Part shown: positions 37,462 to 62,140 of the stretch, piece by piece | Numbering within the stretch: the first letter of the stretch is position 1 | How the letters are laid out: every line of letters begins with the position of its first letter | DNA from: an uncultured Thermoplasmatales archaeon | GTDB lineage: Archaea > Thermoplasmatota > E2 > DHVEG-1 | DNA: 64,000 nucleotides | Direction: 5' to 3' | Assembly: GCA_964347865.1 (NCBI GenBank) | Contig: CAYGAC010000017.1 | Coordinates: 4-64,003, forward strand | The notes under the pieces: generated by a model | The model's input: the letters and a program-made list of their open reading frames with translations, nothing else | Database searches by the model: none | Told to the model about the DNA's origin: nothing | Position numbers and translations under genes: made by a program

Positions 37462-37487
37462 TTTCGGTTTATACCATTAACCGAAAT
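37462..37487. repeat. hairpin repeat copy E (TTTCGGTT-tataccat-TAACCGAAA)
   Basis: Member of a dispersed palindromic family sharing the stem TTCGGTT/AACCGAA. Confidence 0.5.
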
Positions 37488-37605
37488 ATATTTTTATAGA
37501 TAGAATTTTGGTAAATTTTAAAAAAATTTTTTGTAAATTTTTGATTAACGAAATTATTAAATTCCATTTTTAGATTATATGTTGGGATCAGGAAGGATTT
37601 CAAAT

Positions 37606-37736
37606 CTCATTGTTCGTCACTTTGATTTTTGATTATTCTTTTCTGATCCTATTGTTATTTTACCGTCTTGCTATTTTTACAGCAAAAATTTATATATAAA
37701 CATTTACAAAAAAATAAAATCGTGACGAACAATGAG
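37606..37736. promoter_or_regulatory. 21-bp inverted repeat pair (CTCATTGTTCGTCAC..GATTTT / AAAATCGTGACGAACAATGAG) spanning the promoter and start codon of 37732
   Basis: 15-bp perfect match read directly; the second arm contains the ATG of the downstream ORF. Confidence 0.45.
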
Positions 37737-38091
37737 AAAAAAGACAATTGAAAATAGAAAAATAAAAAATAGGCTGGTAATAAACAACGAATTACCTGAT
37801 CTGGAAATAAAATTTAGAAAATATCTAAAAGAATACCATCCTCATAAGTATCAACAACTATTGGACCTAGAAAAAGAAGAGAAAAAAGAAGTCCACGTTG
37901 TAATCAGTCTTTTTGGTGGTTGTCTCAATGATATAAAGGTTTTTTTCGACATCAAAAAAGCAAGAAAGGAATATAAAAGGCAAATTTTAGAGGCTGGTTT
38001 TACCAGTGTGGAAGAGTACGAAGAGTTGCTGAGAAGTGCCCTTATTGAGAAAGAAGAGCCGCGTTTATGTGAAAATGTAGAGGTGTGTTAG
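37732..38091 (+). CDS. hypothetical protein (first gene of PCNA-containing plus-strand module)
   Basis: Start ATG lies inside a 21-bp inverted repeat; no motif. Confidence 0.3.
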   Translation: MRKKTIENRKIKNRLVINNELPDLEIKFRKYLKEYHPHKYQQLLDLEKEEKKEVHVVISLFGGCLNDIKVFFDIKKARKEYKRQILEAGFTSVEEYEELLRSALIEKEEPRLCENVEVC

Positions 38092-38175
38092 AATGGATAT
38101 CTTGGTATTTGCAGATCGGAACCTTTTAAAGATTGTACATCTAGGAGTCACGTATATGCGGAGGGGTGCATAAAA

Positions 38176-38826
38176 ATGACTAAGAAGGAATTGGAAAATG
38201 ATCATATCTTTATAAGGACCTGGCATGGGGGCCTCGTGGTATTCGATAAAAAAGAGCGTAAAAGCTACAGTATTTTTAACAGCTATGACAGGAATATGAA
38301 TTGTCTCATAGATATGGCTTTGGAGTCGTTTGATGATAAGACCACTAGGGATCAGTTGATAGCAAATATTAAGGCTATCAACGACAAGCATTACCATATA
38401 GCTTTATGCTTTGAAGAGTCAACGGTTAAGAAAATACCCATGAAAATGCTTAATACGGTCGAAGAGTTGCAGCAAAGATTAAAAAGTATACCTGATAAAC
38501 CGGTGAATATTAGGATTACGTCTCCTGATGGTTGGAATACTGTTAACCGGATTAACATTCCACTAATTTTAAAACACAGTGTGGTAAGATGTAGTGGTCA
38601 TTACACGGATGACTATGCCTATGATAATGCGGTTAACTTTGGTAAGGATGCTTCTTCTGACGGCTGTAAGATAGCGATCTTAAATGACATCCAAGGGGAT
38701 GCAGGAAATCATCGGTACATCAAATGCTATTGGGATAACCCTGATAAAGAGTTTATTATCTACTATGGGCAGTGGCTCAGCTACAGAGCAAAACCCTTGG
38801 ACAGCCTTAAAATTATTTTCAAATAA
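38176..38826 (+). CDS. hypothetical protein
   Basis: GGAGGGGTG RBS 6 nt upstream of ATG; no family match. Confidence 0.4.
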   Translation: MTKKELENDHIFIRTWHGGLVVFDKKERKSYSIFNSYDRNMNCLIDMALESFDDKTTRDQLIANIKAINDKHYHIALCFEESTVKKIPMKMLNTVEELQQRLKSIPDKPVNIRITSPDGWNTVNRINIPLILKHSVVRCSGHYTDDYAYDNAVNFGKDASSDGCKIAILNDIQGDAGNHRYIKCYWDNPDKEFIIYYGQWLSYRAKPLDSLKIIFK

Positions 38827-38840
38827 AGAGGGTGGTTTAT

Positions 38841-40130
38841 ATGATTATTAAGCTAAAACAACGGATATTATTGCAAGCTATAGATATACATCGACACTTG
38901 GTAAAAGAGCTCAAAATAGAGTTTCTAAAAAAAGAGATACGTATAAACTCGGTGGACCCAGCACACTATGAAATGGTAATTACTACCATACCCATGTCAG
39001 CATGCGAGAAGTACAACGTAAAGGATAAACTGGACATAGGGATCGATCTAAAAAAACTCAAAGATTTTCTAAGGTTGTTCAAAAAAGACGATGTAATCAC
39101 CTTTGACTATGACTATGATACTAATAGGTTACTCGGTAAACGGGGTTATCTGACACGTGGTCTTGGTCTTTTAGACTTGGCTGGCTGGGACAGTGAAAAA
39201 GTTCCTATACTGGAATTGAAAAATAAACTATCGGTAAATGCTAAGATATTCCACGATGGCTTAAAAGGTGTCATTTCAAATACAAACTATGAAAAAACCT
39301 CTCTCACGGTTGAAAAAGATGCGATTATCCTGGAAAACTATGATGAGGACGAAGGCAACAACAAACAACACCGGTCTGTTGTTATGCAAGACACGGGAGC
39401 TATGAAACTCGATTATTGCAACCCTGGGGATTATACCCTTTTTAGAAGTGATCTCATGATAAAACAGATAAAGGAATACAAGAAATATTTTGAAAGGATA
39501 ACAATTGAAACCAGTCCGAATAACCCGTTACGGATCACTGGGAGTAATGATAATTTACAGGTTGAATACTGGATCGCGCCCATTATAGTAGAAACTGAAG
39601 ACTCAGAACCTGAGCAAAAAACAGAAATTGAAATAGATACAAAAGAATTGAAACTAGAGCCAGAGGTTGAAGAACCAGTGCAGCCAGAGATTTATACATC
39701 TGAAGGTACAAAAGAAGACATTGAACGCACGATCGCGAAAGAGAGACTAGCAAACAAAATACAACAGCTAGAAGAGACAGAGATTGAAAAAAGCATAAAG
39801 CCAGTGGTTGATATGTATGCTGATCGATTGTCAATTCGCAAGCCCAAGGGATTGCCGTATGAAAAACATCAGTGGACCATTGACATGGAAAAAATTAAGA
39901 ATACGTTGGAAAAATCGTTGAATAAAAAGAATAAGAAAGCGCTTTCAAAGATCACAGAATTGCAGGGTTTTGTATTCTTTAAAGTCAACTCTACAAATAA
40001 GATAAAAATTGACAACAATGCGGGTGAAGACATTATCGAACGTTTGTTACCCGAGGGTTTTGTACTCATAGCATGGTACCGCTACCGAACTGATACATGG
40101 ATTGCTCAGACCGTTGAAAAGGTGACATGA
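38841..40130 (+). CDS. divergent PCNA-like sliding-clamp protein with ~180-aa acidic/lysine-rich C-terminal extension
   Basis: Domain 1: IIKLKQRILLQAIDIHRHLVKELKIEFLKKEIRINSVDPAHYEMVITTIP...DIGIDLKKLKDFLRLFKKDDVITF parallels PCNA (fragile-site/LGV.L..L.KIL...D.I.L). Domain 2 ends NDNLQVEYWIAPI, which parallels the PCNA end (VEYKI...YLAPK). The ORF track starts at GTG 38832; ATG 38841 is preceded by GAGGGTGG. Confidence 0.6.
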   Translation: MIIKLKQRILLQAIDIHRHLVKELKIEFLKKEIRINSVDPAHYEMVITTIPMSACEKYNVKDKLDIGIDLKKLKDFLRLFKKDDVITFDYDYDTNRLLGKRGYLTRGLGLLDLAGWDSEKVPILELKNKLSVNAKIFHDGLKGVISNTNYEKTSLTVEKDAIILENYDEDEGNNKQHRSVVMQDTGAMKLDYCNPGDYTLFRSDLMIKQIKEYKKYFERITIETSPNNPLRITGSNDNLQVEYWIAPIIVETEDSEPEQKTEIEIDTKELKLEPEVEEPVQPEIYTSEGTKEDIERTIAKERLANKIQQLEETEIEKSIKPVVDMYADRLSIRKPKGLPYEKHQWTIDMEKIKNTLEKSLNKKNKKALSKITELQGFVFFKVNSTNKIKIDNNAGEDIIERLLPEGFVLIAWYRYRTDTWIAQTVEKVT

Positions 40131-40427
40131 TGTTTACAGGATACAAAGAACGGTATCAGAAATTAAAAAAACAATTGAGAGAATTGGAGGTGAACCATGA
40201 TCATACAATTTGCTAAGGATCTCACAAAAGAGATTCTCAGTATCGGTAAAAAAGCCGTTGATGTGGCATACAATATCGTGAAATAAAAAATGCAGTAGGA
40301 TATGGGCTAAGGGCATAGAGGGCAATTCCCCGTTTATCTATCCCATATTATTTTTTATACTATGCTTTTCTTGGTATTGGAATTATGCCCTCTATGCCAG
40401 AATTTTCATTTTGAATTGTCTGTTTAT

Positions 40428-40589
40428 TCATTCTTTTTTAGTGATGATATTTTCTTTCCTTTTGAATTTGCTGCTGCACCAGCTACAGGTAATCATGGGA
40501 GCTCTGGTTCTTGTTTTGAAAATGTGGCCGCATTTAGGACATTTAACCTTTTGGCGATAGATTCTCTTCTTAACATAGCTTTTTTTCAT
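40428..40589 (-). CDS. unannotated 53-aa zinc-ribbon protein
   Basis: Manual translation of minus strand: MKKSYVKKRIYRQKVKCPKCGHIFKTRTRAPMITCSWCSSKFKRKENIITKKE (CPKCG...CSWC). It is below the 60-aa ORF-track cutoff and overlaps the listed + ORF 40362..40658. Confidence 0.3.
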   Translation of the reverse strand: MKKSYVKKRIYRQKVKCPKCGHIFKTRTRAPMITCSWCSSKFKRKENIITKKE

Positions 40590-40731
40590 CGAGTGCACCT
40601 AACCACCACATCTTATATTTATTACTTATACTTTTCTACTACTTTCTACATGAAGTAATTTATAGAGAAAATTATATATACCACAAGCGATATATTAGTA
40701 TGTTACTCGAAGAAATATAGGAGGTATAAAA

Positions 40732-41523
40732 ATGATGAAAAATAAAAGCAAAAAAATAATACAGGCTGCTGTAGCAATCACTGTTGTCTTAGCATTTGTA
40801 ATGCCAGGATCAGCCGTGATTGCTTACAACGACGACTTAGAATTACCACCTATAGCAAGGGATGAAGTCGCAACAGCGAAACTTGTCTGTCAAATAGAGG
40901 GTGAGAAAGTTATCAAAGAACTCCCCGTGGATACTATCCAAGAGATTATAGAGCTTGGCAAGTCATGTGAACAGGATTTCTACACGATCTATAACAAATG
41001 GGAGACAGATCACGAGGTTGATATCGCCTTTAATAATATTGAACCTTTTTTTAGGGCGCTCGTAGACAGTGGACTAACAGAAAAATCCGTGGAAGATTTA
41101 AACGAATTATTCAGAGATATACGAAACAAGATAGGAAAACCACGCAGGGATCCATCATACCTATACTTGAGTAAGGAGGGAGCACAACCAAGTCTCTACA
41201 TATGGAATGGAATACCACTACCCATCGCCGCCAATGTCATGTGCGGTCTTTACACGGTAGGTACTGGTGTTGTTGGTTACAGTCTGGGAACACATACCAT
41301 ACTTCCAGGACCGGGTTTGGATGTATGGAACACGTGGTTTATGACCGGAGGCAATGGCGGAAGCATAGGATTTCTGGGGGCTACATTAGTTGCGATCAGT
41401 GAATTTGCCATGACGGTAGGGTTCATAGGCATTCTCCTAGGGGTATGGCCCTCGGGTATTATCGCACCGTTTATATTCCAGGTTGGTCTCGCTATGTTGT
41501 ACATTGGCGTATCAGTTCTATAA
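40732..41523 (+). CDS. secreted/membrane-anchored protein (signal peptide + C-terminal hydrophobic helices)
   Basis: AGGAGG RBS; N-terminal signal-like segment; Gly-rich hydrophobic C-terminus. Confidence 0.4.
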   Translation: MMKNKSKKIIQAAVAITVVLAFVMPGSAVIAYNDDLELPPIARDEVATAKLVCQIEGEKVIKELPVDTIQEIIELGKSCEQDFYTIYNKWETDHEVDIAFNNIEPFFRALVDSGLTEKSVEDLNELFRDIRNKIGKPRRDPSYLYLSKEGAQPSLYIWNGIPLPIAANVMCGLYTVGTGVVGYSLGTHTILPGPGLDVWNTWFMTGGNGGSIGFLGATLVAISEFAMTVGFIGILLGVWPSGIIAPFIFQVGLAMLYIGVSVL

Positions 41524-41553
41524 ACACAACATCTCTCTCCTTTATCTTTTACT

Positions 41554-42516
41554 ATGATTCCTGTAGTAAAGGCAATTGTAACCCTTGCAACCGCTGCACT
41601 ATGCATCGTTCCGTTGATATTTACCGGATCTGATGAACCGTCTATACAAGAAATCGTAGTTGAAAACAAGGTTAATCCTGATGTTGAAACATATGAAGAC
41701 ACTATTGCGTTAGATCAGTCAGAGCTGTGTCTGGACCACGAGGTCATACAATACAACATAGTGTTTCATGTTAATGCTACTGTAAAAGTAGATGGTTGTA
41801 TTGGGTATATCATCCGTGATCTACAACCTGTGGCTTATCTTTTTTATCTGACAGATGGGGAACAACTGCTGGTCAATTACTCGTACTGTGCACATGTGCC
41901 GTCTGGGACAATACTGGACATAACGACGAGGAGAAACCATTTTAAGATCGGTGGGAGGATTTTTTATAGGATGTTAAATATTGGGAGGAAAGACACGTTT
42001 GATAAAACGTTCTCTGTTCATGCAGGGGACACTTGGTATCTAACCATTGGGGTCTATTGTAGCATTGGAGAAGAGGAGGTATTTGTTAATTTGAAATCAA
42101 CTAGTCCGTGTATGGAACTTATACCATTGGAGCGACATGATAACATAGGACTTTTTTCGTCGTGGGACAACGGTTTTTCCGGTGCATACTTCGGCGTTAG
42201 AATGATGCCGTTTTTACCGTTTGGTTTTAGCTTTGCAGACAATGTGAAGAAAGAGATTACGACGACAAGAGGGACTGTCGTTTCTTTTCTTAGCGTTGCA
42301 CATCGAAAAGGTGAAACAGTGGTGAGAGCACCTGATGGAACATTGTATGTCAACAACGACAGAGGAGCTGCTGGTTTTATCTATTATGGAAACTTAACTG
42401 GAGTATGGATATTCAAAGCATCCGGTATTGGTTTCCCTTGGAAGCATATTATTACGTTGTTTTATACCGATGTTGATCCTCATATTCGATCAGGGCAGAT
42501 GGTTGTGGGCCTGTAG
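41554..42516 (+). CDS. secreted hypothetical protein with N-terminal signal anchor
   Basis: VTLATAALCIVPLIFTG hydrophobic N-terminus; no family. Confidence 0.4.
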   Translation: MIPVVKAIVTLATAALCIVPLIFTGSDEPSIQEIVVENKVNPDVETYEDTIALDQSELCLDHEVIQYNIVFHVNATVKVDGCIGYIIRDLQPVAYLFYLTDGEQLLVNYSYCAHVPSGTILDITTRRNHFKIGGRIFYRMLNIGRKDTFDKTFSVHAGDTWYLTIGVYCSIGEEEVFVNLKSTSPCMELIPLERHDNIGLFSSWDNGFSGAYFGVRMMPFLPFGFSFADNVKKEITTTRGTVVSFLSVAHRKGETVVRAPDGTLYVNNDRGAAGFIYYGNLTGVWIFKASGIGFPWKHIITLFYTDVDPHIRSGQMVVGL

Positions 42517-42610
42517 GTGAACTCCAATGCTTCTCCTGGCAAAGTGAAATGGAGACAGTTACGGCACAACCGTCTAGGTTAATTTTGATAAAATACGGAT
42601 TAGATGTAGC

Positions 42611-42808
42611 ATGAATGAATATGACCGTGGATTTGAAGATGCTTTAGATCTTGTACATGATTATATACAAAGGTACAAAGGTAAACTTCCAGAGGATTTT
42701 GTGTTGTCGATTAAAGAGATTATTCAGAATGTGAGGGACAGAAGAATTGCAGAGTTAAAAAAGGAGCTTAGCTTAATTGATGAAGATCTCCCTGCAAATA
42801 ATAAATAG
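42611..42808 (+). CDS. small hypothetical protein
   Basis: ORF track only. Confidence 0.2.
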   Translation: MNEYDRGFEDALDLVHDYIQRYKGKLPEDFVLSIKEIIQNVRDRRIAELKKELSLIDEDLPANNK

Positions 42809-42924
42809 ACAGTGATGAGCAAACTATCAGCTCTCTTTAAAAGTCTTATATCTATAAGGTATTAAAACACAAAAACGTGCAAAACTTCCCGATAACTTGT
42901 TTATTGTTTGTATAATATCTGTAA

Positions 42925-42983
42925 GAGATTGAAATGTCTAGATTTCGGTTTAATATATAAACCGAAATAACAAAGTTTTCAAT
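42925..42983. repeat. nested hairpin repeat copy A (AGATTGAAA...TTTCGGTTTA-atata-TAAACCGAAA...TTTCAATCT)
   Basis: Two-tier inverted repeat read directly; lies ~170 bp from the 3' end of the IS200-type tnpA. Confidence 0.55.
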
Positions 42984-43156
42984 CTCAACCTTAATCTGAT
43001 GAATTGACTGTTTGAACGGTTTCCGCATACGTTCCCAATATTACGACATCTACTAAAGCTATAGTAATCCAACTCTCCCCTTTTTTTCTTTTATAAAAAA
43101 TCCCCAAGAATACCACTGGTTTCAACCAGTGGATGAATTGGGGTCTAGCTTTTTCT

Positions 43157-43720
43157 TCACCTCGTAAAATCTCCAATCTTCGCTTGACCGGTAGGGTCTC
43201 CAAAGATACTATACTCAAATACATCTTTTCCATCTTGTTCAAGGATATATCTCTTTACTGCATCTTGACTGACATGCCCTGCACTGCCACAGTAGTATCC
43301 TCGTGCCCACAGATAGTTAAATTGTTTCCAATGCTTGGGGTATCCTAGATATTTTAACTCAGGATAAAATTCCCGTAATAAACGTGATGATACACCTTTC
43401 AATTGTTTCACAATTACTGAAGGAATATGAGTTGGTTTCGCACCAACAAACAGATGGAGGTGATCTGGCATGATCTCTAGTGCAAGAGCATTCAATTGAA
43501 GTATTTTACATTCCTTCGTAAGTATGATGTTTAATGTCTTTTTTACATCGCCTTCAAGTACTAACTTTCTATATTTTGGAATCCAAACAAGATGATAATT
43601 GATGTTGTACTTGCAATGAAAACCACTTTTTACCGTTGCAATCTTTACATCCAGCTGATACTTGTTTGGATTGAAATGCGGGTAATTGTGTAACATGAAG
43701 GATGACGGTGCGCATACCAT
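43157..43720 (-). CDS. tnpA: IS200/IS605-family HUH (Y1) transposase TnpA, with N-terminal extension
   Basis: YHLVWIPKYRKLVL, MPDHLHLFV (HuH motif), LKGVSSRLLREF, LWARGYYCGSAG (catalytic Tyr). The true start is probably an internal Met giving a protein of ~150 aa. Confidence 0.8.
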   Translation of the reverse strand: MVCAPSSFMLHNYPHFNPNKYQLDVKIATVKSGFHCKYNINYHLVWIPKYRKLVLEGDVKKTLNIILTKECKILQLNALALEIMPDHLHLFVGAKPTHIPSVIVKQLKGVSSRLLREFYPELKYLGYPKHWKQFNYLWARGYYCGSAGHVSQDAVKRYILEQDGKDVFEYSIFGDPTGQAKIGDFTR

Positions 43721-43945
43721 CGCTTACTACTACTCGACCCTGTGGGTCGATATGTTTTAAGCAAGATGGTTTGCGTTCCTTCATGTTACTCATAAAAAGA
43801 TACAGTATGGGATACCCCCATCTTTAGATGGATTCATTTTGGGAGGATGTCATTTTTAATAATTATATCTAAGAAATTAGCCCACTGAAACTGGTTTTGT
43901 TACATAAGTTACAATAATATTATAGAAAAATTTAAATTAAAACAA

Positions 43946-45583
43946 TTGATTACAATTTTTAAAATATATATTTGTGGAGGGAAAAATTTGAGAGATAGAA
44001 TTATTAAAAAATGGGTGGTATTAGGAATAATACTATTATTTGTTGGAGTAAGCGTCATACCATCAACTGGAATAGTGGAAAAACCGAGTAAATCAACCAT
44101 TGGCAGAGCTATTTTGTATGTAGGTGGTGATGGACCAGGGAACTATACTAGTATTCAGGATGCTGTTGATAACGCTAGTGATGGGGATACAGTGTTTGTC
44201 TTTGATGATTCTTCTCCGTATTATGAAAATGTTGTAGTGGATAAATCAATAAAGCTGATAGGCGAAAACCGAGATACCACTGTTATTGATGCTGAAGGAA
44301 GTGGTGGGGACGTTGTCTATCTTTCTGGTGGTGGGGCAACCGTAAGCGGGTTTACGATTCAAAACTGTCAACTTATTACGGGTGCTGAAGGAATTGATAT
44401 ACAATCAAACTATAACACCGTCATGAATTGCCGTATTTTAAACAACACGGATGGCATTGCCCTTTGGTCAAACGGTAACAAAATCTCTGGTAACATAATC
44501 TCGAACAGTGTAGATGCGGCTATATACATTGATGGTGCTAACAGCAATACTATCACAGGTAACACCATTTCAAACAATCAACATAACGGCATTATGTTTT
44601 ATATGTCCAGTTACAATACCATCTCAGATAACAACATCTCAAATAACGGCTGGTTTGGTATAGTCGCGGGTATGTCCGACTACAACACCGTCTCAGGCAA
44701 TGATATCATTTCGAACAACTATGATGGCATTAACCTTATTTTTTGCAACAACAACACTATTACAGGTAATACTATTGTGGACAACGACGACGGCATCTTC
44801 TTACGAGAATCCTGTGACGACAATCAAATTTTTGAAAACAACATCATCTCGAACAATTGGAGAGGCGTAGACCTTCGTTATTCCAGTTCCAACAACAACG
44901 TTATTTACCATAACAACATCATTGACAACACGGTAAACAATGCTTATGATGAAGGAAACAATATCTGGGATGATGGCTATCCCTCTGGTGGGAACTACTG
45001 GTCTGATTATACAGGAGAAGACGCTAATGGCGATGGCATAGGAGACACTCCTTATCCTATCCCTGGTGGTGACAGCAAAGATAGATATCCGTTCATGAAC
45101 GAAAGTGGGTGGCTGAATCCTCCGATTGCAAACTTCACTTATTCGATAGACGAATTAACAGTGACATTTGATGGTTCATCATCTTATGATTCTGATGGAG
45201 AAATCATTTCTTACGAATGGGATTTCGATGACGGAACATATGGAAATGGAATGATTGTTAGCCATACCTATTCTGCACCTGAAATATATAATGTGACACT
45301 TACAGTAACAGATGATGATGACCTAGAGGACAGCATAACAAAAACTATTGAGGTTGAATGGTCACCAGAGTTTGAAAAAACCTTTATTTTTGGCAGGATT
45401 GATAATCTAACTATACCAGGAAATGTTATCACATTTAATGCGGTGAATATACGTGTCATCAAGTTTTCACCATTTCAGATACTTGCTTACAAATCAGGAG
45501 AGTTAATAACAATATCAAAGGATTATTTTGGTTTGGTTGGAGCAAGGTTCATATTTGCTTTGTGTGATTCGTATATGGGATGA
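43946..45583 (+). CDS. secreted right-handed beta-helix (NosD/pectate-lyase-like) surface protein with PKD domain
   Basis: Signal anchor WVVLGIILLFVGVSVIPSTG; ~10 repeats of the N.I..N..GI type; PKD segment YEWDFDDGTYGNG...YNVTLTVTDDDD. A likely alternative start is TTG 43988 preceded by GGAGGG. Confidence 0.6.
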   Translation: MITIFKIYICGGKNLRDRIIKKWVVLGIILLFVGVSVIPSTGIVEKPSKSTIGRAILYVGGDGPGNYTSIQDAVDNASDGDTVFVFDDSSPYYENVVVDKSIKLIGENRDTTVIDAEGSGGDVVYLSGGGATVSGFTIQNCQLITGAEGIDIQSNYNTVMNCRILNNTDGIALWSNGNKISGNIISNSVDAAIYIDGANSNTITGNTISNNQHNGIMFYMSSYNTISDNNISNNGWFGIVAGMSDYNTVSGNDIISNNYDGINLIFCNNNTITGNTIVDNDDGIFLRESCDDNQIFENNIISNNWRGVDLRYSSSNNNVIYHNNIIDNTVNNAYDEGNNIWDDGYPSGGNYWSDYTGEDANGDGIGDTPYPIPGGDSKDRYPFMNESGWLNPPIANFTYSIDELTVTFDGSSSYDSDGEIISYEWDFDDGTYGNGMIVSHTYSAPEIYNVTLTVTDDDDLEDSITKTIEVEWSPEFEKTFIFGRIDNLTIPGNVITFNAVNIRVIKFSPFQILAYKSGELITISKDYFGLVGARFIFALCDSYMG

Positions 45584-45610
45584 TGGAATTGTAGATTTGA
45601 AGGGGGAAAA

Positions 45611-45817
45611 ATGCCAGATTTACTTATTAAATTCCTAGCAACCCTAGGTGTGATTGCCCTATCACTCATATGGTATTTTTACCTCTATCCAGCAATGAAA
45701 AAAGAATATGCGAGGAAAGGATGGACATGGAGACGAATATATGATATTGAGGTGGATAATAGGAGATCGTATAGGGAGTTGGTTGGAGTGATTATAGCGA
45801 CAATTAGGATGAAATAG
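45611..45817 (+). CDS. small membrane protein
   Basis: One TM helix; GGGGGAAAAATG RBS. Confidence 0.3.
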   Translation: MPDLLIKFLATLGVIALSLIWYFYLYPAMKKEYARKGWTWRRIYDIEVDNRRSYRELVGVIIATIRMK

Positions 45818-45892
45818 GGTTTATAAAGAAATTAATGTTACTCATCGTAAAATTTAGGAAAACTTATTAGGATTTTTTATATACAAATTTGT

Positions 45893-46099: not shown

Positions 46100-46113
46100 T
46101 AATAACTTGATTG

Positions 46114-46455: not shown

Positions 46456-46475
46456 TGGAAAATATAGCAGGTAGA

Positions 46476-49792: not shown

Positions 49793-50141
49793 TTTCAAAA
49801 ACCTCCTTTTTAGGTTAAATATGTAATATATTATCGACTTATAAATGAATCCCATAAAGTCTTTATACAGTATTTAGAAAAATTGGAATTTATACCATAA
49901 ATATTATGATTCTTTTAAATCAAAAGATTTTTTCGTTCTTGATTGTAATATTAGAATTCCACCTCTCGAACTTTAGTTCTCATGAAATGCTGGATGATAT
50001 TTTCTCACTTGTTGTTGAATTTCTTCCCTCCCAATTTTTTGAGAAAATTTATATTGAAATTATTTCTTTTATTTATTATAACTTGCCCACGAAAACTCGC
50101 TCATGTGTAACTTTTTCCCGTCCATGGATAACCCCTAAAAA

Positions 50142-50164
50142 TTCGGTTAATGCGATTAACCGAA
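50142..50164. repeat. hairpin repeat copy B (TTCGGTTAAT-gcg-ATTAACCGAA)
   Basis: Same stem family; preceded by CTAAAAA as in copy C. Confidence 0.5.
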
Positions 50165-50413
50165 CTGATTATATCAATGGTTTCTTTTTGTGCAAAAATT
50201 ACCTCAAGAAACACTTAAAAAATGCCGCCAGGTAGCCTAATTGAACATGGATAAAAATATATTGATAATTGGAATAGTAATTCTGTTCCAATCATCGTTA
50301 ATGATTTTAGACTAAGACTAGCGTCATGAGGCTGTATTTAAAGTTTATAAGGAGAAATGGTGTCTATAATCAGTATTTATGATTAGATGATGGAACAATG
50401 CCTAGCAGGTTTT

Positions 50414-53294: not shown

Positions 53295-53379
53295 AATTAT
53301 TGAAAATGTGTATTCTCTTTATTTTTATATTTCCTTTCTTTTTTAAATCGGTATTTTTCATCATATTATATTAATTAGA

Positions 53380-53907: not shown

Positions 53908-53958
53908 GAATCTTATAATATTGGTCTACTTCTTTACTTCCCTTTATGCAATATTCTC

Positions 53959-54882: not shown

Positions 54883-55084
54883 AATATCTTTTACTTTAAA
54901 TAGTTGTTTTAAAATCGACTATTTAAATCAAAGGTTTAGTCCTAAAACATATCTCACCTTCTCTCATTCAACAGAACTAGTTTCAGTAATTCCATACGGA
55001 ATTATCTTGGGTGAAAAACTAAGAATTATTTACTATTAGCTTTTATAAAGTGATAAATGTTATAAAAATCTCTGAGGATATACT

Positions 55085-55975
55085 ATGGTAGGCAAAGTTT
55101 TTTTAAGTTGTGGTCAAAGACCCCCTCGCGAAGAACGTATTGCTAAGAAGATAAAAAAGTTGCTAAAGGATAAATTTGACTTAGATTGTTATGTTGCTAT
55201 TAATATTCAGAGTTTAAATGACATAATGAAAATAACGGATGAATTGAAATCTTCGGATTATTTTCTGTTTGTTGATTTTTCAAGAAAAGACGAAAATTTT
55301 CCTTGTTCTGTATTCAGTCATCAGGAACTTGCTTTAGCTTACCATCTTGGATTCAAAGAGATGATCGCATTTAAAGAAAAGGATTTAAATTCAGAAGGTT
55401 TTATTAGATATGTCCAATCAAATCCGGAGTCATTTAAATCTGAAGCGGAACTACTTGAAAAAATCGAGAGTTATGTTAAACAACGGAACTGGAATAAGAA
55501 GTATTCTAGGAATCTAATTGTGGATCGTATTAAAAAATTTGAGATTCCCATTGTTTACACTGATCATACAGGTCGTTATGAGGAATATGTTTGGCATGCT
55601 TACATTAGGAATCTTAGACCTGATATCGCAGCAGTTAACTCGGTGTGTATATTAGATTATATAGAATTGCCAGACGGAACTAAAGAAAAATGTTATGACC
55701 GCAATTATCTAAAATGGGCAACAACAATAGGTTATCAAAAAACTATACTTCCAGAAGATTTTGGTATAGTTGATATTTTTGCGATTCGTGAGAAACCTCC
55801 TGGAATTTATTTGCACAGTCAGTGGGATATAATTATAAGAAATCCCGTAATAAAAAAAGATGGTAAATACAAATTACATTACAAAATATTCTCTGAAGAA
55901 TTTCCATTATTATTATTTTATGTAGAAGTCGATTATCAACATAAAAAATCTACTCAGGCAAAACTAATTAATTAA
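55085..55975 (+). CDS. DUF4062-like (TIR/deoxyribosyltransferase-related Rossmann) domain protein with unknown C-terminal domain
   Basis: KVFLSCGQRPPREERIAKKI...DYFLFVDFSRKDE...SVFSHQELALAYHLGFKEMIAF resembles the DUF4062 pattern (VFISSTFRDL.EER...DIYVGIIG.RYG...S.TE.EYE.A...GKPILVF). Divergent from the TIR gene. Confidence 0.4.
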   Translation: MVGKVFLSCGQRPPREERIAKKIKKLLKDKFDLDCYVAINIQSLNDIMKITDELKSSDYFLFVDFSRKDENFPCSVFSHQELALAYHLGFKEMIAFKEKDLNSEGFIRYVQSNPESFKSEAELLEKIESYVKQRNWNKKYSRNLIVDRIKKFEIPIVYTDHTGRYEEYVWHAYIRNLRPDIAAVNSVCILDYIELPDGTKEKCYDRNYLKWATTIGYQKTILPEDFGIVDIFAIREKPPGIYLHSQWDIIIRNPVIKKDGKYKLHYKIFSEEFPLLLFYVEVDYQHKKSTQAKLIN

Positions 55976-56137
55976 AATTAAAAAAAATCTTTTCTTCTCC
56001 TTCAACAGGAATAAGAGCATTACACACCAATCCAATGACTACAATGGTATATAACCATAAGAGTATATTTGATGCGATAAATTGGATACAATCAGATAAA
56101 TATTATTCGTAATAATTCATAGTAAAATTAAATATGA

Positions 56138-56659
56138 ATGTCCAATATACTTAGGTTTATGATTGACTATGATTTTAAATATCAATATAATTCAATAATA
56201 CCTAGAAAAGGTAGAAAAGAGGTTCTTGATGCAGTTCAAGCAAGTTTTTCTGGATTGGAAATCTGTGTAAAATTGACTACAGAGAGTTATATTAAAAGAA
56301 AAGACAAAACTCAAAATATCAAAAAATTCAATACATTTAGAAAAAGAGTTGACTATTTAAAGAAAAAAATTTTGATTACAAAAGAAGTTCATGATCTTAT
56401 GGTAATACTAGGAAGGATAAGGAATAAATTATTTCACGAAACAATAACTAACAAACAAATATTCAATTTATTCAATGAAATTATTTTAGATAATGATTTT
56501 GTAAAAAAAATAGGGAATGATTGTAGAAAATATCAATTGTTAGGAAGTTATTGTTGTATGGTTATATTCGAACTCCAAAAAAGTTTTGCACCTGAAGAGA
56601 TACTTCATTTAGAAGGAACGAAAGATACAAAATTTGAGCCTTATGACGGATTTATTTAG
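56138..56659 (+). CDS. putative HEPN-domain protein
   Basis: ILGRIRNKLFHE contains an R-N-x3-H motif in a predicted helix (HEPN Rx4-6H). Size 173 aa. Confidence 0.35.
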   Translation: MSNILRFMIDYDFKYQYNSIIPRKGRKEVLDAVQASFSGLEICVKLTTESYIKRKDKTQNIKKFNTFRKRVDYLKKKILITKEVHDLMVILGRIRNKLFHETITNKQIFNLFNEIILDNDFVKKIGNDCRKYQLLGSYCCMVIFELQKSFAPEEILHLEGTKDTKFEPYDGFI

Positions 56660-57416
56660 TAAAATGAATTTCTATTAAGTTAAACAATTTTTTCAATATA
56701 TCTGGGATTTTTTTATTATTAAGAGGATTTATCACCCCTTTAAAATGATTATTTTTCATCATAATAACAGATGATATCTTATCATTTTCTTTTTTCGAAA
56801 ATTCACCAAGAAAATGACGTATTACTTGTTTAGTTTCATTATTTATATTGTAGATAACCCCGCCTTTTCCATTTCTTTGACAAAAAATCAATAAATCCAT
56901 GAATTCGCCAAAATCAACTCCTGGTGGTACATTCATTAAAATAAAATTTATTTTGTCATCGGATAATTTCGAATGGATTTTATCTAGGATAATATCCCAT
57001 ATTCTAGTAATATCATCAATTTCTTCTGCATACTCGCCCATAGGTTCTAATAACTTTTGAGAGGTATGAAGATTCTTTACCTCAATTATTGAATTTAGTT
57101 CAGGTATTTCGACATCGGGAAAACTTTTTGATAAACGTATATCGATTTTATTTTTAATCAGATAACAAGCGGTTTTGATTTCTATTAATGTATCTTCAAA
57201 TTGAGGAGAATTATTTAATTTATCTCTTAAATCTTTATTAATTAAATTATTTTCATTAAGTATATAGAGATTTTCGTTGAATATTTTGAAATATTCACTA
57301 AAATCATAACGACTTTTTGAATTTAAGATAAATAATGGGTGATCTTTATTTTTACCATCATTAAACCATTCATTTGGAAATATTTCTAGTATATTGGGAA
57401 ATCTATCTAAAGACAT
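56652..57416 (-). CDS. hypothetical protein, convergent and overlapping the HEPN-like gene by 8 nt
   Basis: ORF track; no motif. Confidence 0.35.
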   Translation of the reverse strand: MSLDRFPNILEIFPNEWFNDGKNKDHPLFILNSKSRYDFSEYFKIFNENLYILNENNLINKDLRDKLNNSPQFEDTLIEIKTACYLIKNKIDIRLSKSFPDVEIPELNSIIEVKNLHTSQKLLEPMGEYAEEIDDITRIWDIILDKIHSKLSDDKINFILMNVPPGVDFGEFMDLLIFCQRNGKGGVIYNINNETKQVIRHFLGEFSKKENDKISSVIMMKNNHFKGVINPLNNKKIPDILKKLFNLIEIHFTK

Positions 57417-57708
57417 TTTAACATCTGTTTTTAAATTTTACAATAATGCAATATTATATAAAACTGGCAGTTAGCATAGTAAAAACCTTCTAAGTATTAC
57501 TATCACATATCAAACTCTAATCAAAAAATGAAATACGATTCTTAATCTATCATCACTGTATCCTGATTATTATCAGGTATGGACCACATACCCAGCTATA
57601 TATGTTGAGAAAACCTTAACTATTAATTGTTAAAAAGTATTGAGAATAGGTGTTTTCTGCCTGATTTGTCTTTGAATCACTGTCGTTTATTTGGAAATAC
57701 CTAAAAAA

Positions 57709-57731
57709 TTCGGTTAAGATAATTAACCGAA
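57709..57731. repeat. hairpin repeat copy C (TTCGGTTAA-gataa-TTAACCGAA)
   Basis: Same stem family; preceded by CCTAAAAAA. Confidence 0.5.
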
Positions 57732-58046
57732 ACTTATAAGGTTTTAAGTTATAAATGCTAAAAAGTAGGGAGAAACCTTCTGTTATCAAATCCAACCTAG
57801 GCCTATTTGAGTGAAGTAAAAGGACGAAGAAAAATTTATTATCTCCCTAAGAAAGGAGAATCATTACCAAAATATATATCTGCTATAAACAATATATTTA
57901 TGTTTTCAAAAAATCCTACAAAATGCCAAAAAATTGCATGATTTTTTATTTTTTTCGGAAAAATCATAACTATCAATTTAAGTATTTATAGAACAATAAA
58001 AAAATCCTGTCAATAAATGTCTTATTGATTTAATGGAGGGATAGAA

Positions 58047-58277
58047 ATGAATGAAAAAGAATCGTATAGCATATTGGATTTTAAAGAAGCTGATCCCATC
58101 CTTGAAAAACATAGAAAAGACGTGATTGAAAAATTCATGGAATATGAAATAGTTCTGCTGAATGAGTTCAAAGAAAAAGACAAAAATCTAGATGATTATT
58201 TGGAACATATGAAAACAACTCTGTGGTTCATAAAAGACCAGAGAGCACATCAGATAAATGAAGAATTGAAATTATAA
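58047..58277 (+). CDS. small acidic hypothetical protein
   Basis: GGAGGGATAGAAATG RBS. Confidence 0.3.
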   Translation: MNEKESYSILDFKEADPILEKHRKDVIEKFMEYEIVLLNEFKEKDKNLDDYLEHMKTTLWFIKDQRAHQINEELKL

Positions 58278-58279
58278 TC

Positions 58280-58495
58280 TTACTTTTTTTTAACACCGAT
58301 TATCTGATCAATAAGTTCGTATTTTACCAAAGCCTTTCCTATTATTATTTTTCCATTCTCAATCCTGAAAAAAACTTCATCATTTGGTTTTAATTTTAAA
58401 AGTTTTAAAACTTCATGAGGTAGTGTTATCCTGTTTCTACTATCTATCTGTCGAGGTTTACTTAAGATTTTTTCCATATAAATTGTGGGATACAA
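58280..58495 (-). CDS. AbrB/MazE/SpoVT-type (swapped-hairpin) DNA-binding protein
   Basis: RNRITLPHEVLKLLKLKPNDEVFFRIENGKIIIGKA fits the looped-hinge-helix motif. Confidence 0.55.
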   Translation of the reverse strand: MYPTIYMEKILSKPRQIDSRNRITLPHEVLKLLKLKPNDEVFFRIENGKIIIGKALVKYELIDQIIGVKKK

Positions 58496-58735
58496 TTTTT
58501 CATATTTAGATTTAATGGTATTATGGGTGTATGGGTAAAATATATATACCCATTATGCGATATAGTGTTGATTTGATTTTGTATAACTAATACAATCTAA
58601 TCGGGGAGGTTAATGAAATTGTGATTATTGATTGGAAAATTGAATTCTCTCGAGATCACATTAATTTTATAGTGGATTATAACGACCGAGACGGAAAAAG
58701 CCTAAAGGAACCTCATTCTCGGGAGGTCAAAGAAT

Positions 58736-60169
58736 ATGGAGAGTGAACAAATAATGAAAAAAAGAATTTGGATAGCTAGCATAATAGTTGTGCTAATGAT
58801 GTTGGTAAGTTCACAGATAGTGTTTTTCAACACAGTGAAATCTGATCCAACTCCACATACTGGAGATGCAGATGTAGGAATACTCTGGATTAGTGAATTA
58901 GATGTATCGTCACATCTACAAACGATTGATAACATTGGAATTGGTCATGTGAACGCAACTGATGATTGGGTAATATGGGAAGATGGAACTGGTAATATAA
59001 ATGCCAGCTGGTCAGTTGATATAGGAAATAGACACCCTGAATATTTTGTCAAGTTCGGATTAACCGTTTATAATGTGGATGACGAGAATAAAAACATTGG
59101 AAATGATATGTTTATAAAGACCTATAACACAAACACGGGCTATGATGAAAGTGGTACTCTCACTGCTGCCCTTGAATTTACTCAACAGCAGATGGCGGCA
59201 GGCTCCCAGACTTTAGTGTGTTATCTTGACGCTGAGATTATTTTGAATGAAACTGTAGAAGCAGTAAACTTTACTAGTTGGAGTCAGGACAGGTGTGTTG
59301 TTGCTGTAGACTTCGTGGATCCTCAGGATGTTCCGCCGTTTTCAAAATACAGAGATAAAGCAAACGATAAGTTTCCAAGTATGTACACTTATATTAACGG
59401 ATGGAATGAACCTGGATTATTTGATGATGAAGACGACATGCTTAATAATCAAACTTTTTTCAAGGTTGGTTCTGCTACGCTAGCCTCAACTTCTGACAGT
59501 AGCGGTCTTTGGGATTTAGGAGATGCTAAAATCTGGAGAGATAACGATTTGCAAGCTCACCTAGACTTTATACCAAAACCGCCTTATACACATACAATTG
59601 ATCCTGTAGAGGGAGTATTGACATGTGATGTAAAAGTTGATTTTACTATTGACATGTATAAGGGAAAACCTCCTCGTGCGGTGCTAATGGCTTATCGTTT
59701 ATGGAAAGAAGATGGTCAATTTGCAAGCGACTGGGCGATAAGGCCTTGGTGTATTTATTTGGAAGATCCTACAGGTGATTTTAGAACAACAATAACTGCG
59801 GATACTAGTGATGATATATATCCCTACCCAGATGGAGATGGTAAAGTCGAGATATGGGGTAGGTTTTATGTGGCCCTTTTTAAAGGAGGCGCTATGGATT
59901 TCATGAAAACTCAATTTGATCCATATTATATAATAATTGGAGATGGACAAGGTGAATCTGTTGAAATTGAACATGAGTATTGTAGATGGGAATGCTCGTG
60001 TGCATATCACAACGAATCATATATTATACCCGTTGATTCAAGCACAATATCTGGAGTGACCATGGTTGAAGCCGATATTACTGATATTTTACAATCACAG
60101 TCAACAGGTGAATGTGTGTATACGTTTGCAGGTGATAGAGGCGATACAAGAATTAGATTGACTTGTTAA
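58736..60169 (+). CDS. secreted hypothetical protein (477 aa)
   Basis: Signal peptide MKKRIWIASIIVVLMMLVSSQIVFF; Cys-containing C-terminus; N-x-S/T sequons. Confidence 0.45.
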   Translation: MESEQIMKKRIWIASIIVVLMMLVSSQIVFFNTVKSDPTPHTGDADVGILWISELDVSSHLQTIDNIGIGHVNATDDWVIWEDGTGNINASWSVDIGNRHPEYFVKFGLTVYNVDDENKNIGNDMFIKTYNTNTGYDESGTLTAALEFTQQQMAAGSQTLVCYLDAEIILNETVEAVNFTSWSQDRCVVAVDFVDPQDVPPFSKYRDKANDKFPSMYTYINGWNEPGLFDDEDDMLNNQTFFKVGSATLASTSDSSGLWDLGDAKIWRDNDLQAHLDFIPKPPYTHTIDPVEGVLTCDVKVDFTIDMYKGKPPRAVLMAYRLWKEDGQFASDWAIRPWCIYLEDPTGDFRTTITADTSDDIYPYPDGDGKVEIWGRFYVALFKGGAMDFMKTQFDPYYIIIGDGQGESVEIEHEYCRWECSCAYHNESYIIPVDSSTISGVTMVEADITDILQSQSTGECVYTFAGDRGDTRIRLTC

Positions 60170-60291
60170 AATTGAACTCATGACATCGGATGAACATTCA
60201 ATTCATCTATCCCCTCTTTTTTTCTTTATTTTTGGTTGGGTATAAAAATTTAAATATATGATAAACAATTAAATTATGTATTGGAGGAAGC

Positions 60292-61695
60292 ATGAAAACC
60301 AATAAAGGATACATCCTCGTTGTTACCCTATTGTTCATTGGGCTTGCTTGTGCACCATCCATTAATGCCAGTATCAACAGAGCATTCGAAAGGGACTCTG
60401 GAACAAATAGAAACAGAGCCGCTAGTTTAATTGATGGTAATCATCCACCGATTTACATCCACGGCAATGAGAATTTTACTTCTGAAAATGGTGTCACGGG
60501 TGGTAGCGGTACAGAAGAGGACCCGTATATTATTGAAGGTTGGGTTATTGTTGGAAATGGTTCCACGAGTGAGGGCATCTTTATAAACAATACTGATGCT
60601 TATTTTGTTATTCGGAATTGTACAATTTTTAATCTAACCGACAAGTATGATTCAGGTATTTTATTATTCCATGTTGAAAATGGGAGAATCGAGAATACAA
60701 TTTCATTTAGAACTCAAATAGCGATAAGAATACGATATTCTGCTCGGATTGAAATCTTTAACTGTACAAGTGATGATTATTCTACAGTATGGTTTGCATC
60801 GGGTGTTTTTTGTTATAGTTCTTCTTATGCTACTATCTCGTCATGTGATTTCCATGGCAAGGGAATTGGTATAATATTATGGAAAACATCATATAGTGTA
60901 ATTGATAACTCCTCATGCCATGACAATAGTTTTTTTGGAATAGATATTAGTAGAAAACAATCTGTACATAATACGGTAAAGGACTGTAAGATATACAATA
61001 ATACATATGAGGGAATATTCATTTATGCGGGTGATTGTAAAAGGTATTCAACTTATGCTCATATCCTTCGTTGTGACATATACAATAACGGTCTTCTCCC
61101 AGACGCTGCTAATGGAGAACCAGGTATTACAATTTGGGATGTTCATGAAAATATTATAGAGGATTGCAGTATTCATCATAATGGACTGGGGATAAAAATA
61201 GATGCTTCTCGGGGTAATATCATAAGGAATTGCAGTATTTTTGGCCACTATAAAGAATCTGGGATGATAGCTGGAGGTATTGAAATTACAAGAGACTATA
61301 TAGGTTTAGTAAGGGCTCGGAATAATAAGATTATAAACTGTGATATTTATGATAATGAGTTGGGTATATTTACATTTGGAACTTTAATGACGAAAATCGA
61401 AAAAAACAATATATCTAACAATAGCTATTTTGGAATCGCTTCATTTCTCTCTTTTTTGAACCGTATTAACTACAATAATATCTATGATAATGGTGGATTT
61501 ACGCCTGCACTGGACAGCAGCGGTGTTATGTCTCAGTTGGCATTTATCGATGCCCGTCATAACTGGTGGGGTTCATCTAAAGGTCCCAGTTGGTTGGTAT
61601 TCCAAAATCGTGGTGATAAATTGATACGATTTTTCGGTTGGGCTTCATTCCGACCCTGGGAGCGAGAGCCAATTCCTGATGCCGGCGTTAACTGA
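60292..61695 (+). CDS. secreted right-handed beta-helix repeat protein (NosD-like)
   Basis: Signal peptide ...GLACAPSINA; repeats NN.Y.GI.I, DN..GI.I, HHNGLGIKID, YDNELGIF. Confidence 0.55.
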   Translation: MKTNKGYILVVTLLFIGLACAPSINASINRAFERDSGTNRNRAASLIDGNHPPIYIHGNENFTSENGVTGGSGTEEDPYIIEGWVIVGNGSTSEGIFINNTDAYFVIRNCTIFNLTDKYDSGILLFHVENGRIENTISFRTQIAIRIRYSARIEIFNCTSDDYSTVWFASGVFCYSSSYATISSCDFHGKGIGIILWKTSYSVIDNSSCHDNSFFGIDISRKQSVHNTVKDCKIYNNTYEGIFIYAGDCKRYSTYAHILRCDIYNNGLLPDAANGEPGITIWDVHENIIEDCSIHHNGLGIKIDASRGNIIRNCSIFGHYKESGMIAGGIEITRDYIGLVRARNNKIINCDIYDNELGIFTFGTLMTKIEKNNISNNSYFGIASFLSFLNRINYNNIYDNGGFTPALDSSGVMSQLAFIDARHNWWGSSKGPSWLVFQNRGDKLIRFFGWASFRPWEREPIPDAGVN

Positions 61696-61797
61696 CAATG
61701 CCGTCACGAGTTTAGGATAACCTTTGAATGAGTGTAAAATCAAGTAAATATTAAATTGTGTCAGGCAAAAAGCCTGATTTTCCATATTTTTGTTGAG

Positions 61798-62013
61798 TTA
61801 TCTAGAATCACTTGTTTCCTTTGTGATTTTCATAGAGTGGACAGATTTTATCAAATCCTGAACTAGAGGGAAAATCGGTGTATCTATCGCTTCTGCTAGG
61901 TGTTCGAACTTGTCCTTTTTGGTGGACTTAAGGGGATAATGTTCGAACACTAGATATGAGAAAGCAGATTTAATTTTCTTTATCCTATTTTTAAGGAGAA
62001 AGTCAACCGTCAA
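61798..62013 (-). CDS. hypothetical small protein
   Basis: ORF track only. Confidence 0.2.
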   Translation of the reverse strand: MTVDFLLKNRIKKIKSAFSYLVFEHYPLKSTKKDKFEHLAEAIDTPIFPLVQDLIKSVHSMKITKETSDSR

Positions 62014-62117
62014 GTTTAGCTAGGATTGCCCCTGTTTTATTCTGAAATTAGTAAGTACTATTTTCCTCAACTGCGAGTAAATGCTTATTTAACCTTTAAG
62101 GTTCAAAAAATAAGTTT

Positions 62118-62140
62118 TTCGGTTTTGGGTATAAACCGAA
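62118..62140. repeat. hairpin repeat copy D (TTCGGTTT-tgggtat-AAACCGAA)
   Basis: Same stem family. Confidence 0.45.

Follow-up and report, generated by a model that had tools for sequence, protein, structure and literature searches.

Dispersed palindromes that are constrained in sequence are well studied in bacteria, where repetitive extragenic palindromes and bacterial interspersed mosaic elements (REP/BIME), DNA uptake sequences, attC sites and pdif sites are familiar examples; in archaea, to our knowledge, they have barely been described. Here we analyse a 23-bp palindrome, TTCGGTT-N9-AACCGAA, present in five copies in a 64,000-nt stretch of contig CAYGAC010000017.1 from an uncultured Thermoplasmatales archaeon (assembly GCA_964347865.1), referred to below as the window. 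As far as comparison of sequences can tell, archaeal mobile DNA has in this motif a new dispersed palindrome that is specific to one lineage. The reading that we favour, tentatively and short of even confidence, is that of a cis-acting, predicted protein-binding dyad at the module seams of tRNA-integrating elements, with a PadR-like protein as the candidate binder.

The motif resembles REP/BIME sequences, which are associated with REP-associated tyrosine transposases (RAYT), in being a short, species-specific, intergenic imperfect palindrome found in many copies, sometimes paired ~200 bp apart, in which sequence and not structure alone is conserved. Unlike in that system, the host is an archaeon, the copies reside in mobile or accessory DNA with none in the 36 kb of core DNA sampled, the only Y1 enzyme is a normal IS200 TnpA, and the motif flanks its tnpA gene on one side only. 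The pdif modules of Acinetobacter plasmids and Xer/dif sites are similar in that short dyads bound gene modules which occur in varied combinations across replicons, and the integrases found near our motif are annotated as Xer-like. However, the dyad described here has a single-base centre, a length of 23 bp and central bases that vary between copies, the local Xer-like integrase targets tRNA genes, and no module with two matching sites was seen. Like attC sites, which are reported in Archaea too, the motif has inverted outer cores that are conserved around a variable centre, lies between accessory genes and has neighbours that are exchanged. attC sites are 57–141 nt long, carry core pairs R''/L'' and L'/R' with the consensus RYYYAAC/GTTRRRY, separate co-oriented cassettes and occur with IntI; identity with attC was rejected because the present site has 23 bp, no second core pair, no GTTRRRY consensus, genes of mixed orientation around it and no integrase in the window.

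Geometry, sequence constraint and distribution of the palindrome

The five copies occupy positions 37463-37485, 42944-42966, 50142-50164, 57709-57731 and 62118-62140 of the window (copies 1 to 5 in this order; copies and surrounding units carry no strand assignment unless one is given). A preliminary description of the window had placed a hairpin at each of these locations, and all five are real, with the starts of the first two corrected to 37463 and 42944. Four of them (37463, 42944, 50142 and 57709) fit the strict pattern TTCGGTTWA-N(3-8)-TWAACCGAA, which was not matched once in 100 shuffles, while TTCGGTT-N9-AACCGAA with up to two mismatches returns exactly five sites in the window, adding 62118, where 0.22 would be expected. 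Copy 5 breaks the WA/TW rule (TTCGGTTTT...TAAACCGAA). All five span 23 bp within a frame fixed at 7-N9-7, and the differences in loop size reported earlier come down to variable extra pairing inside this frame. Folded as single-stranded DNA, each copy forms a hairpin of -7.7 to -9.9 kcal/mol (z = -3.9 to -7.1). Every copy is intergenic, with the nearest convincing gene 135-550 nt away. Alignment of the five copies against each other revealed no similarity beyond the 23-mer, and for each copy one or both flanks have homologues in other genomes. A CTAAAAA(A) flank previously ascribed to copies B and C is indeed shared, although the lettering was off and the copies concerned are those at 50142 and 57709.

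Constraint on the dyad was assessed in ~352 kb of related Thermoplasmatota-like loci (individual loci are labelled with L-numbers hereafter). In these, the halves TTCGGTT and AACCGAA are invariant in 56 exact copies, and seven near-copies are present, six with a single uncompensated mismatch and one with two; not one compensatory stem variant was found among the 56 exact and seven near-copies. In the consensus dyad, TTCGGTT(W)A-N5-T(W)AACCGAA, A9 and T15 are nearly invariant, and roughly half of the copies have A-A or T-T at positions 8 and 16, so that these are paired in only about half. The lack of compensatory change, together with the frequent absence of pairing at 8:16, argues for selection on the half-site sequence TTCGGTTWA and not on pairing, and selection on sequence implies recognition by a protein, in agreement with what the preliminary description had proposed. 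Across the copies compared, it is the half-site sequence that is shown to be conserved, and not pairing as such. The loop has a weak T-N-Y-C-N centre whose orientation is fixed relative to the type of flanking arm, and the site therefore has polarity.

Within the window, the motif is confined to accessory or mobile DNA. Positions 1-36000 of the window are of housekeeping character, with ~35 core genes that include those for IF-2B, CBS proteins, the pantothenate-pathway DFP, AsnA, aldehyde:ferredoxin oxidoreductase, an HdrA/MvhD-like protein and subunits of pyruvate:ferredoxin oxidoreductase, and these 36 kb hold no copy at up to two mismatches. A generic terminator, which had been considered and which should occur at similar density everywhere, is at odds with this distribution within the window. 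The DNA from 36.5 to 64 kb is accessory and encodes a PCNA-fusion module, an IS200 element, NosD/PKD beta-helix proteins and many membrane proteins, along with DUF1508, HNH, TIR and MazE-like genes. The left border of this island probably lies at position 36515, where a radical-SAM gene of the Rv2578c family (36156-36515, L183) is cut after ~119 codons and matches model positions 38-136 of 317; a 4.3-kb short-read contig of the same strain (Logan) ends ~250 bp past this truncation. The window contains no tRNA gene, no Rfam family reaching its gathering score and no tRNA-fragment remnants of attachment (att) sites.

When one genome for each prokaryotic species was scanned (596 Gb), the strict pattern matched 63 loci. 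Fifteen of these come from two Thermoplasmatota metagenome-assembled genomes (MAGs), namely CSMAG_1320 with 11 strict loci and the Thermoplasmatales MAG binchicken_co129_679 with four. Twelve more belong to one 'Mcinerneyibacteriota' MAG, in which the flanks are quite different and the stem is longer, and the remainder are mostly single matches in unrelated bacteria, at about chance level for 596 Gb by our own estimate. Metagenomes yielded at least ~30 contigs with flanks or genes homologous to the window, mostly from JABAOC/JABAOH and Ga0315282; among the matches listed there was also a large unrelated repeat family from other samples. Both the motif and the proteins of the element described below are essentially absent from viral collections. 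We read this distribution as that of a palindrome family specific to one Thermoplasmatota lineage.

Three other repeat families were met in these scans. The bacterial MAG CSMAG_1462, from the same study, carries a separate family with the core TTCGGTTAAC-N3-GTTAACCGAA, a 10-bp stem and a 3-nt loop (L014, L017, L021, L024, L025, L028, L035, L039, L041, L045, L054), with one conserved arm rich in CAGAGAA/CAGAGAG repeats, the other arm unique, and in L054 a pair 245 bp apart; its outer stem is identical to that of the archaeal family, whereas the flanks are unrelated. About 60 contigs within L067-L178 (Ga0228710/11, Ga0315913-15, Ga0099826, Ga0209282) contain a high-copy element ending in TAGGGGTGGGCATGG-TTCGGTTAACCATATTAACCGAA-CCGAACCGAAGTGTTGAAATGGTTCGG..., which holds the motif and several more CCGAA repeats, comes from an organism of ~33% GC and has the 23-mer as its one likeness to the window. 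Several Bdellovibrio/Pseudobdellovibrio genomes (L019, L036, L040, L047, L050, L162) have a longer palindrome, CTCTTGAT-TTCGGTTTACA(A/C)TGTAAACCGAA-ATCAAGA, which explains some of the 'background' matches of the genome scan.

Mosaic arms around the palindrome

The 100-250 bp flanking the palindrome are repeat families themselves, and they are combined differently across it. Clustering the first 36-40 nt of every arm gave 15 arm families. Families 0 and 1, which make up the A-type pair, occur together in 13 copies, and families 2, 3, 4, 5, 6, 10, 11 and 12 are each found with at least two different partners. Arm 4, for example, is joined to arm 2 in L002, to arm 11 in L044 and to arm 10 in L063, while arm 6 is joined to arm 3 in the window and to unrelated arms in L031 and L043. 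Homology ends at the outer edge of the 23-mer, and the loop stays with the left arm in some cases and with the right arm in others (L044 versus L002/L063; 57709 versus L031/L043), which places the points of exchange inside the stems. At least seven metagenome contigs (L092, L093, L106, L119, L122, L156, L164) end inside the site or no more than 12 nt from it, and in several loci copies are spaced 0.2-10 kb apart. Judged by these comparisons, the flanks on either side of the dyad are shown to be interchangeable modules. The idea that the hairpins are recombination sites separating cassettes thus holds in part: arms are exchanged at the palindrome and contigs break there, but no gain or loss of an entire block between two copies was found in the loci compared, no recombinase could be tied to the site, and genes inside the blocks point both ways.

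Individual copies in the window illustrate this mosaic. Copy 2 (TTCGGTTTAATATATAAACCGAA) is B-type and has an identical core in L020, L148 and L180. It sits in a 190-bp unit (42906-43096) composed of a b2 arm, which includes a CRISPR-repeat-like 30-mer at 42906-42935, and a b1 arm (42967-43096) that ends in a T-run, and it is this copy that is enclosed by the outer repeat AGATTGAAA (42926-42934) / TTTCAATCT (42977-42985), which had been attributed to the first one along with the proximity to tnpA. Copy 3 (TTCGGTTAATGCGATTAACCGAA, followed on the minus strand by TTTTTAGGGG) has a homologue in L055, where the conserved non-coding unit around it (50028-50410) is 91% identical in a different gene context. 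Copy 4 (TTCGGTTAAGATAATTAACCGAA, followed on the minus strand by TTTTTTAGG) represents the commonest core type, with 13 copies; in its unit (57532-57764), the left arm (57532-57708) is similar to L031 and L043 and the right arm (57732-57764) to L119, L122 and L179. Copy 5 (TTCGGTTTTGGGTATAAACCGAA) matches L063 in its core and 32-nt left arm, a segment (62086-62140) that contains a second small hairpin, GAACCTTTAAGGTTC, common to L063.

Several further observations concern the surroundings of these copies. The solitary 30-mer ATTTCAATCTCTTACAGATATTATACAAAC (42906-42935, minus strand; L020 1462-1491), 8 nt from copy 2, scores 29.4 bits in a full-length match to CRISPR-DR2, whose gathering score is 37 (E = 0.0015 in 501 nt, 0.08 in 27.5 kb). 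The motif as a CRISPR repeat was rejected, there being no array in the window or the loci fetched, and so was the b1 arm as a structured small RNA: outside the palindrome it shows neither a conserved structure nor covariation, and Rfam gave no match at gathering level. Just past copy 5, at 62492-62746, are two overlapping low-complexity open reading frames (ORFs) with runs of I/L/Y codons in an ATT/ATC-rich tract, probably non-coding simple sequence. The window itself starts inside a pseudogene (1-517, stop after 51 codons) of a secreted or membrane protein family of ~190-205 aa with the signature ...SVVGYNS.ESD.KASPLFTIRT..., members of which lie repeatedly 0.4-0.7 kb from palindrome copies on other contigs (L082, L087, L119, L180).

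The PCNA element and a PadR-like candidate binder

The best-sampled context of the dyad is that of copy 1 (TTCGGTTTATACCATTAACCGAA, A-type), both flanks of which are kept in at least 13 other copies. It lies inside a multi-copy element of which the window holds a segment on the plus strand (36857-41056) with a 103-aa gene, the palindrome, genes for a 119-aa protein, a 216-aa protein and a 432-aa PCNA fusion, and the start of a membrane protein gene. By blastn and tblastn this segment has 70-86% DNA identity to at least 12 loci (including L006, L023, L027, L042, L051, L079, L088 and L090), at least five of them in one MAG. The order is conserved: 103-aa gene, ~215 nt, palindrome, ~246 nt, 119-aa gene, 216-aa gene, PCNA fusion. 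The fusion matches PCNA_N and sliding-clamp models and consists of a PCNA N-terminal domain with ~180 extra residues. Fuller elements add a RadC-like JAB protein, LPD29 proteins and a tRNA/181-aa/integrase module, so that in L023, L033 and L112 the order reads tRNA gene, ~181-aa gene, tyrosine integrase, (103-aa gene), palindrome, replication-type genes; the order tRNA-181aa-integrase-palindrome is found also in L148 and L060, with two other palindrome types.

The integrase module is a two-gene operon located directly 3' of a tRNA gene (Gly, Glu, Ser or Leu) in six loci (L023, L060, L148, L186, L187, L190), at the border of core genes and variable or defence DNA. Its first gene encodes ~181 aa and its second is named in the sources as a XerD/XerA-type tyrosine recombinase, of a family with 2065 proteins at E <= 1e-20. 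An integrase operon next to a tRNA gene is the classical tRNA-targeting arrangement (PMC8371274). As a side observation, the PCNA element is a multi-copy integrative family in Thermoplasmatota whose 216-aa protein is highly conserved and has no recognised fold. Within the element, no protein segment is more conserved than the C-terminal half of this protein (window 38176-38826; W..TV...C.G.YTDDY...YYGQWLSY), with just seven homologues among 5.8 billion clustered proteins and 38%-identical matches on two IMG/VR viral contigs of 53-66 kb (L197, L198). The 216-aa protein has no Pfam, PHROG or NCBIfam match and none in phage or plasmid collections, and its interpretation as an HUH Rep was rejected, the apparent HYH motif not being kept among the seven homologues.

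In the A-type copy, the dyad stands between a PadR-like winged helix-turn-helix (wHTH) gene and a BRE/TATA-like promoter (BRE, transcription factor B recognition element) of the 119-aa/216-aa/PCNA-fusion operon. An alignment of 16 copies delimits the conserved non-coding unit at 37330-37565 (plus strand): the a1 arm with a second hairpin, T5, the palindrome, TATAGATAGAAT, an A/T tract and ACGAAATTATTAAATT. The second hairpin (37433-37454, ATAAAAGA-N6-TCTTTTAT) is kept at the same position in 14 loci, and its 6-nt loop reads GCATCA in some copies and the reverse complement TGATGC in others, a flip-flop between inverted stems. The ACGAAATTATTAAATT box (37548-37563), strongly conserved 63 nt downstream of the palindrome, fits what we take to be the archaeal BRE/TATA pattern. 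The 480-bp spacer around the copy is very AT-rich (GC 0.27), and iteron-like GATAGAATTTT repeats lie beside it. Further downstream, 37605-37620 (TCTCATTGTTCGTCAC) and 37722-37737 (GTGACGAACAATGAGA), 101 nt apart, show perfect 16-nt complementarity; the second arm spans the ATG of the 119-aa gene, and the arrangement looks like a leader structure that would sequester this start codon.

The 103-aa gene (36936-37247, plus strand) encodes the PadR-like winged-helix protein that we consider the candidate binder. Its AF2 model (pLDDT 85.6) has PadR/LmrR, RTP (replication terminator protein) and the centromere-binding AspA of pNOB8 as best folds, with TM ~0.5-0.6. The stop codon of the gene is accompanied by a hairpin and T6 run of its own (37232-37249), terminator-like, and the palindrome is thus not its terminator. 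A gene for a wHTH-type protein beside a palindrome at fixed spacing is what is expected of operators and centromeres, and here the 103-aa gene accompanies 10 of 14 A-type copies, at a distance of 215 nt in the window. The two stay together even where the PCNA module is missing, as in L130 and L146, which retain gene, palindrome and promoter box; L113 and L097 have the palindrome and PCNA module without the 103-aa gene. This is similar to PadR/LmrR operators and the AspA centromere, where a small PadR-fold gene lies next to a palindrome of fixed spacing, in the latter case on an archaeal mobile element. Unlike those, our site is downstream of the gene, many of its dispersed copies lack the gene, its half-sites are more widely spaced and its binder is predicted.

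We suggest that the dyad would be bound by a dimeric DNA-binding protein that the element itself encodes, for which the 103-aa protein, acting in trans on all five copies, is the leading candidate, and that the dyad would serve as an operator or a boundary where modules meet. The T-run copies, about one in three, would double as terminator-like insulators. Because the same 23-mer is common to many elements, exchange at or beside it could have produced the arm mosaic, and the 36.5-64 kb island would then be a patchwork of such elements and their remnants, with the five copies marking the seams.

Several points weigh against this proposal. The link between the PadR-like protein and the dyad is a candidate one, drawn from adjacency and predicted fold, and no 103-aa gene lies beside 33 of the 47 non-redundant copies, among them four of the window's five. 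The site is downstream of that gene and ~60 nt upstream of the TATA box, which is not the position of a simple repressor. Known PadR operators have the form ATGT-N8-ACAT, and the half-site centres of our dyad, ~13-16 bp apart, are somewhat wider than this. The weak loop polarity T-N-Y-C-N is not required by a symmetric dimer site. Finally, arm exchange exactly at the site and the contig ends found there would more naturally suit dedicated recombination.

Alternative explanations and biological meaning

Under this last alternative, the dyad would be a dedicated site for a tyrosine or other recombinase, with inverted arms around a 7-nt overlap, at which modules are excised, inserted or swapped as in pdif modules or a miniature attC; we consider it possible but doubtful. 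The combinatorial joining of arms at the 23-mer, with crossovers inside the stems, the contig ends and the close spacing of copies are all in its favour. The 8-7-8 layout of the dyad equals the classical core site of tyrosine integrases (PMC8371274), and in five loci a Xer-like integrase lies 0.25-2.2 kb upstream and reads toward the palindrome. Against this, the integrase operon is always behind a tRNA gene, so that its att site is the tRNA, and eight integrase-selected loci from relatives contain neither the motif (at up to 2-3 mismatches) nor an analogous palindrome. We accordingly rejected the palindrome as att site of the local integrase: with the operon abutting the tRNA gene and the motif inside the element, it is an internal feature. 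The window encodes no recombinase; the variation of central bases between copies would block strand exchange by a tyrosine recombinase, the two arms of the A-type copy stay joined in 13 copies, no block is bracketed by copies with identical centres, and, in contrast to integron cassettes, the blocks contain genes of both orientations. A dif-like site, which has two 11-nt inverted arms and a 6-nt spacer (PMC8371274), was rejected too, since a dyad centred on a single base (7-9-7 or 9-5-9, 23 bp) makes an even 6-nt spacer impossible with symmetric arms; so was a single-copy Xer/dif site of the terminus type, given five copies in 25 kb here and at least 11 in one MAG. Dedicated recombination accounts better for the sharp exchange of arms, yet with neither an enzyme nor a demonstrated gain or loss of blocks it stays a doubtful explanation, and its more specific form, a new archaeal module-shuffling system analogous to attC/pdif with a minimal 8-7-8 site and a recombinase encoded elsewhere in the genome or its elements, seems unlikely to us.

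An RNA-level terminator or insulator at the ends of transcription units, uniform through common descent, is again unlikely as a general explanation, although T5-6 followed by AGG comes directly after 16 of 47 copies in one orientation, two window copies, 57709 and 62118, were called terminator-like on their minus strand, other hairpin/T-run structures are often found beside the motif (37433-37454 with T5, the arm of copy 5, L087), and 24 of the 35 copies that can be oriented have an upstream gene reading in the same direction. This orientation bias is gone or weak when the homologous A-type copies are left out of the count, the T-run is missing from two thirds of the copies, the upstream stop codon is far away (median ~210 nt, up to 750 nt), the 103-aa gene has its own terminator-like hairpin, the ~35 core genes of the window make no use of the motif, and the lack of compensatory change in 56 copies is unexpected for a purely structural hairpin. 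Archaeal termination, moreover, depends on oligo-T and needs no hairpin. The T-run subset of copies may well terminate transcription. Two coding interpretations were discarded: ORFs behind the T-run arms, with SD-like (Shine-Dalgarno) AGGGG and ATG, have just 9-47 codons and are unconserved, and the left stem is not a conserved C-terminus ('FG-stop'), as stop codons occur ~20 codons upstream. We regard it as improbable that the dyad is a replication origin or origin-associated hairpin, bipartite like rolling-circle or plasmid origins, with the other copies as remnants. The AT-rich spacer of the A-type copy directly upstream of replication-type genes, the adjoining second hairpin and the iteron-like repeats do point that way, and the layout is comparable to the archaeal Rep-Arvir origin, an inverted repeat with a conserved hairpin downstream of the initiator gene (PMC13107129). 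However, no replication initiator was recognised in the PCNA element, the 216-aa protein lacking a conserved HUH motif and any Pfam or PHROG match; the loop, where nicking would fall, is the least conserved part; and copies occur 200 bp apart and in contexts without replication genes. The preliminary description had also connected the hairpins to the IS200 element next to copy 2, as subterminal hairpins or as relics of palindrome-associated or miniature inverted-repeat transposable elements (PATE/MITE) that its HUH transposase would mobilise in trans. HUH Y1 transposases act on hairpins, and the ORF at 43157-43720 is indeed an IS200 TnpA (Pfam Y1_Tnp 6e-33; NF033573 transpos_IS200, 127.6 bits against a cut-off of 55), with its stop codon 190 bp, not ~170 bp, from the copy. 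Like IS200/IS605 ends and PATEs, our units are non-coding, hairpin-bearing and devoid of target-site duplications and terminal inverted repeats. But the IS200 has hairpins of its own just outside the ORF (43102-43143 and 43722-43762), unlike each other and with stems unrelated to the motif, so that the motif does not resemble the subterminal hairpins of its left and right ends. The 190-bp unit occurs in L020, L148, L156 and L180 without any IS or tnpA, and in the window its homology ends at the T-run a few bases before the IS hairpin, so the IS was inserted beside it. A tblastn search with TnpA gave no match in 182 motif-bearing loci (no search was aimed at tnpB), the 25 Pfam families seen most often in 103 neighbouring proteins include no transposase family, and the RAYT model NF047646 REP_Tyr_transpos scores only 22.9 bits on TnpA, below its cut-off of 80. 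The motif is absent from the other side of tnpA (43720-43946), its single copy there being on the 3' side, and it was never found at both ends of a unit, those around copies 2, 4 and 5 having it at one edge. The IS200-substrate explanation is therefore largely refuted, and what probability it retains is very small.

Setting aside this tempting but wrong link is one outcome of the analysis. Whether read as the protein-binding dyad at module seams that we favour or otherwise, the palindrome offers an exact sequence tag by which the seams of mobile-element mosaics can be searched for in an uncultured Thermoplasmatota lineage. The accessory islands of this lineage contain replication modules and genes for surface proteins and for defence, TIR among them. 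Should the site prove to be an operator or a boundary, it would mark out one regulon common to co-resident elements. If it is a recombination site, it would show how archaeal accessory islands are assembled, and a module-shuffling system of this kind, if true, would assemble the surface-protein, defence and replication islands of Thermoplasmatota.

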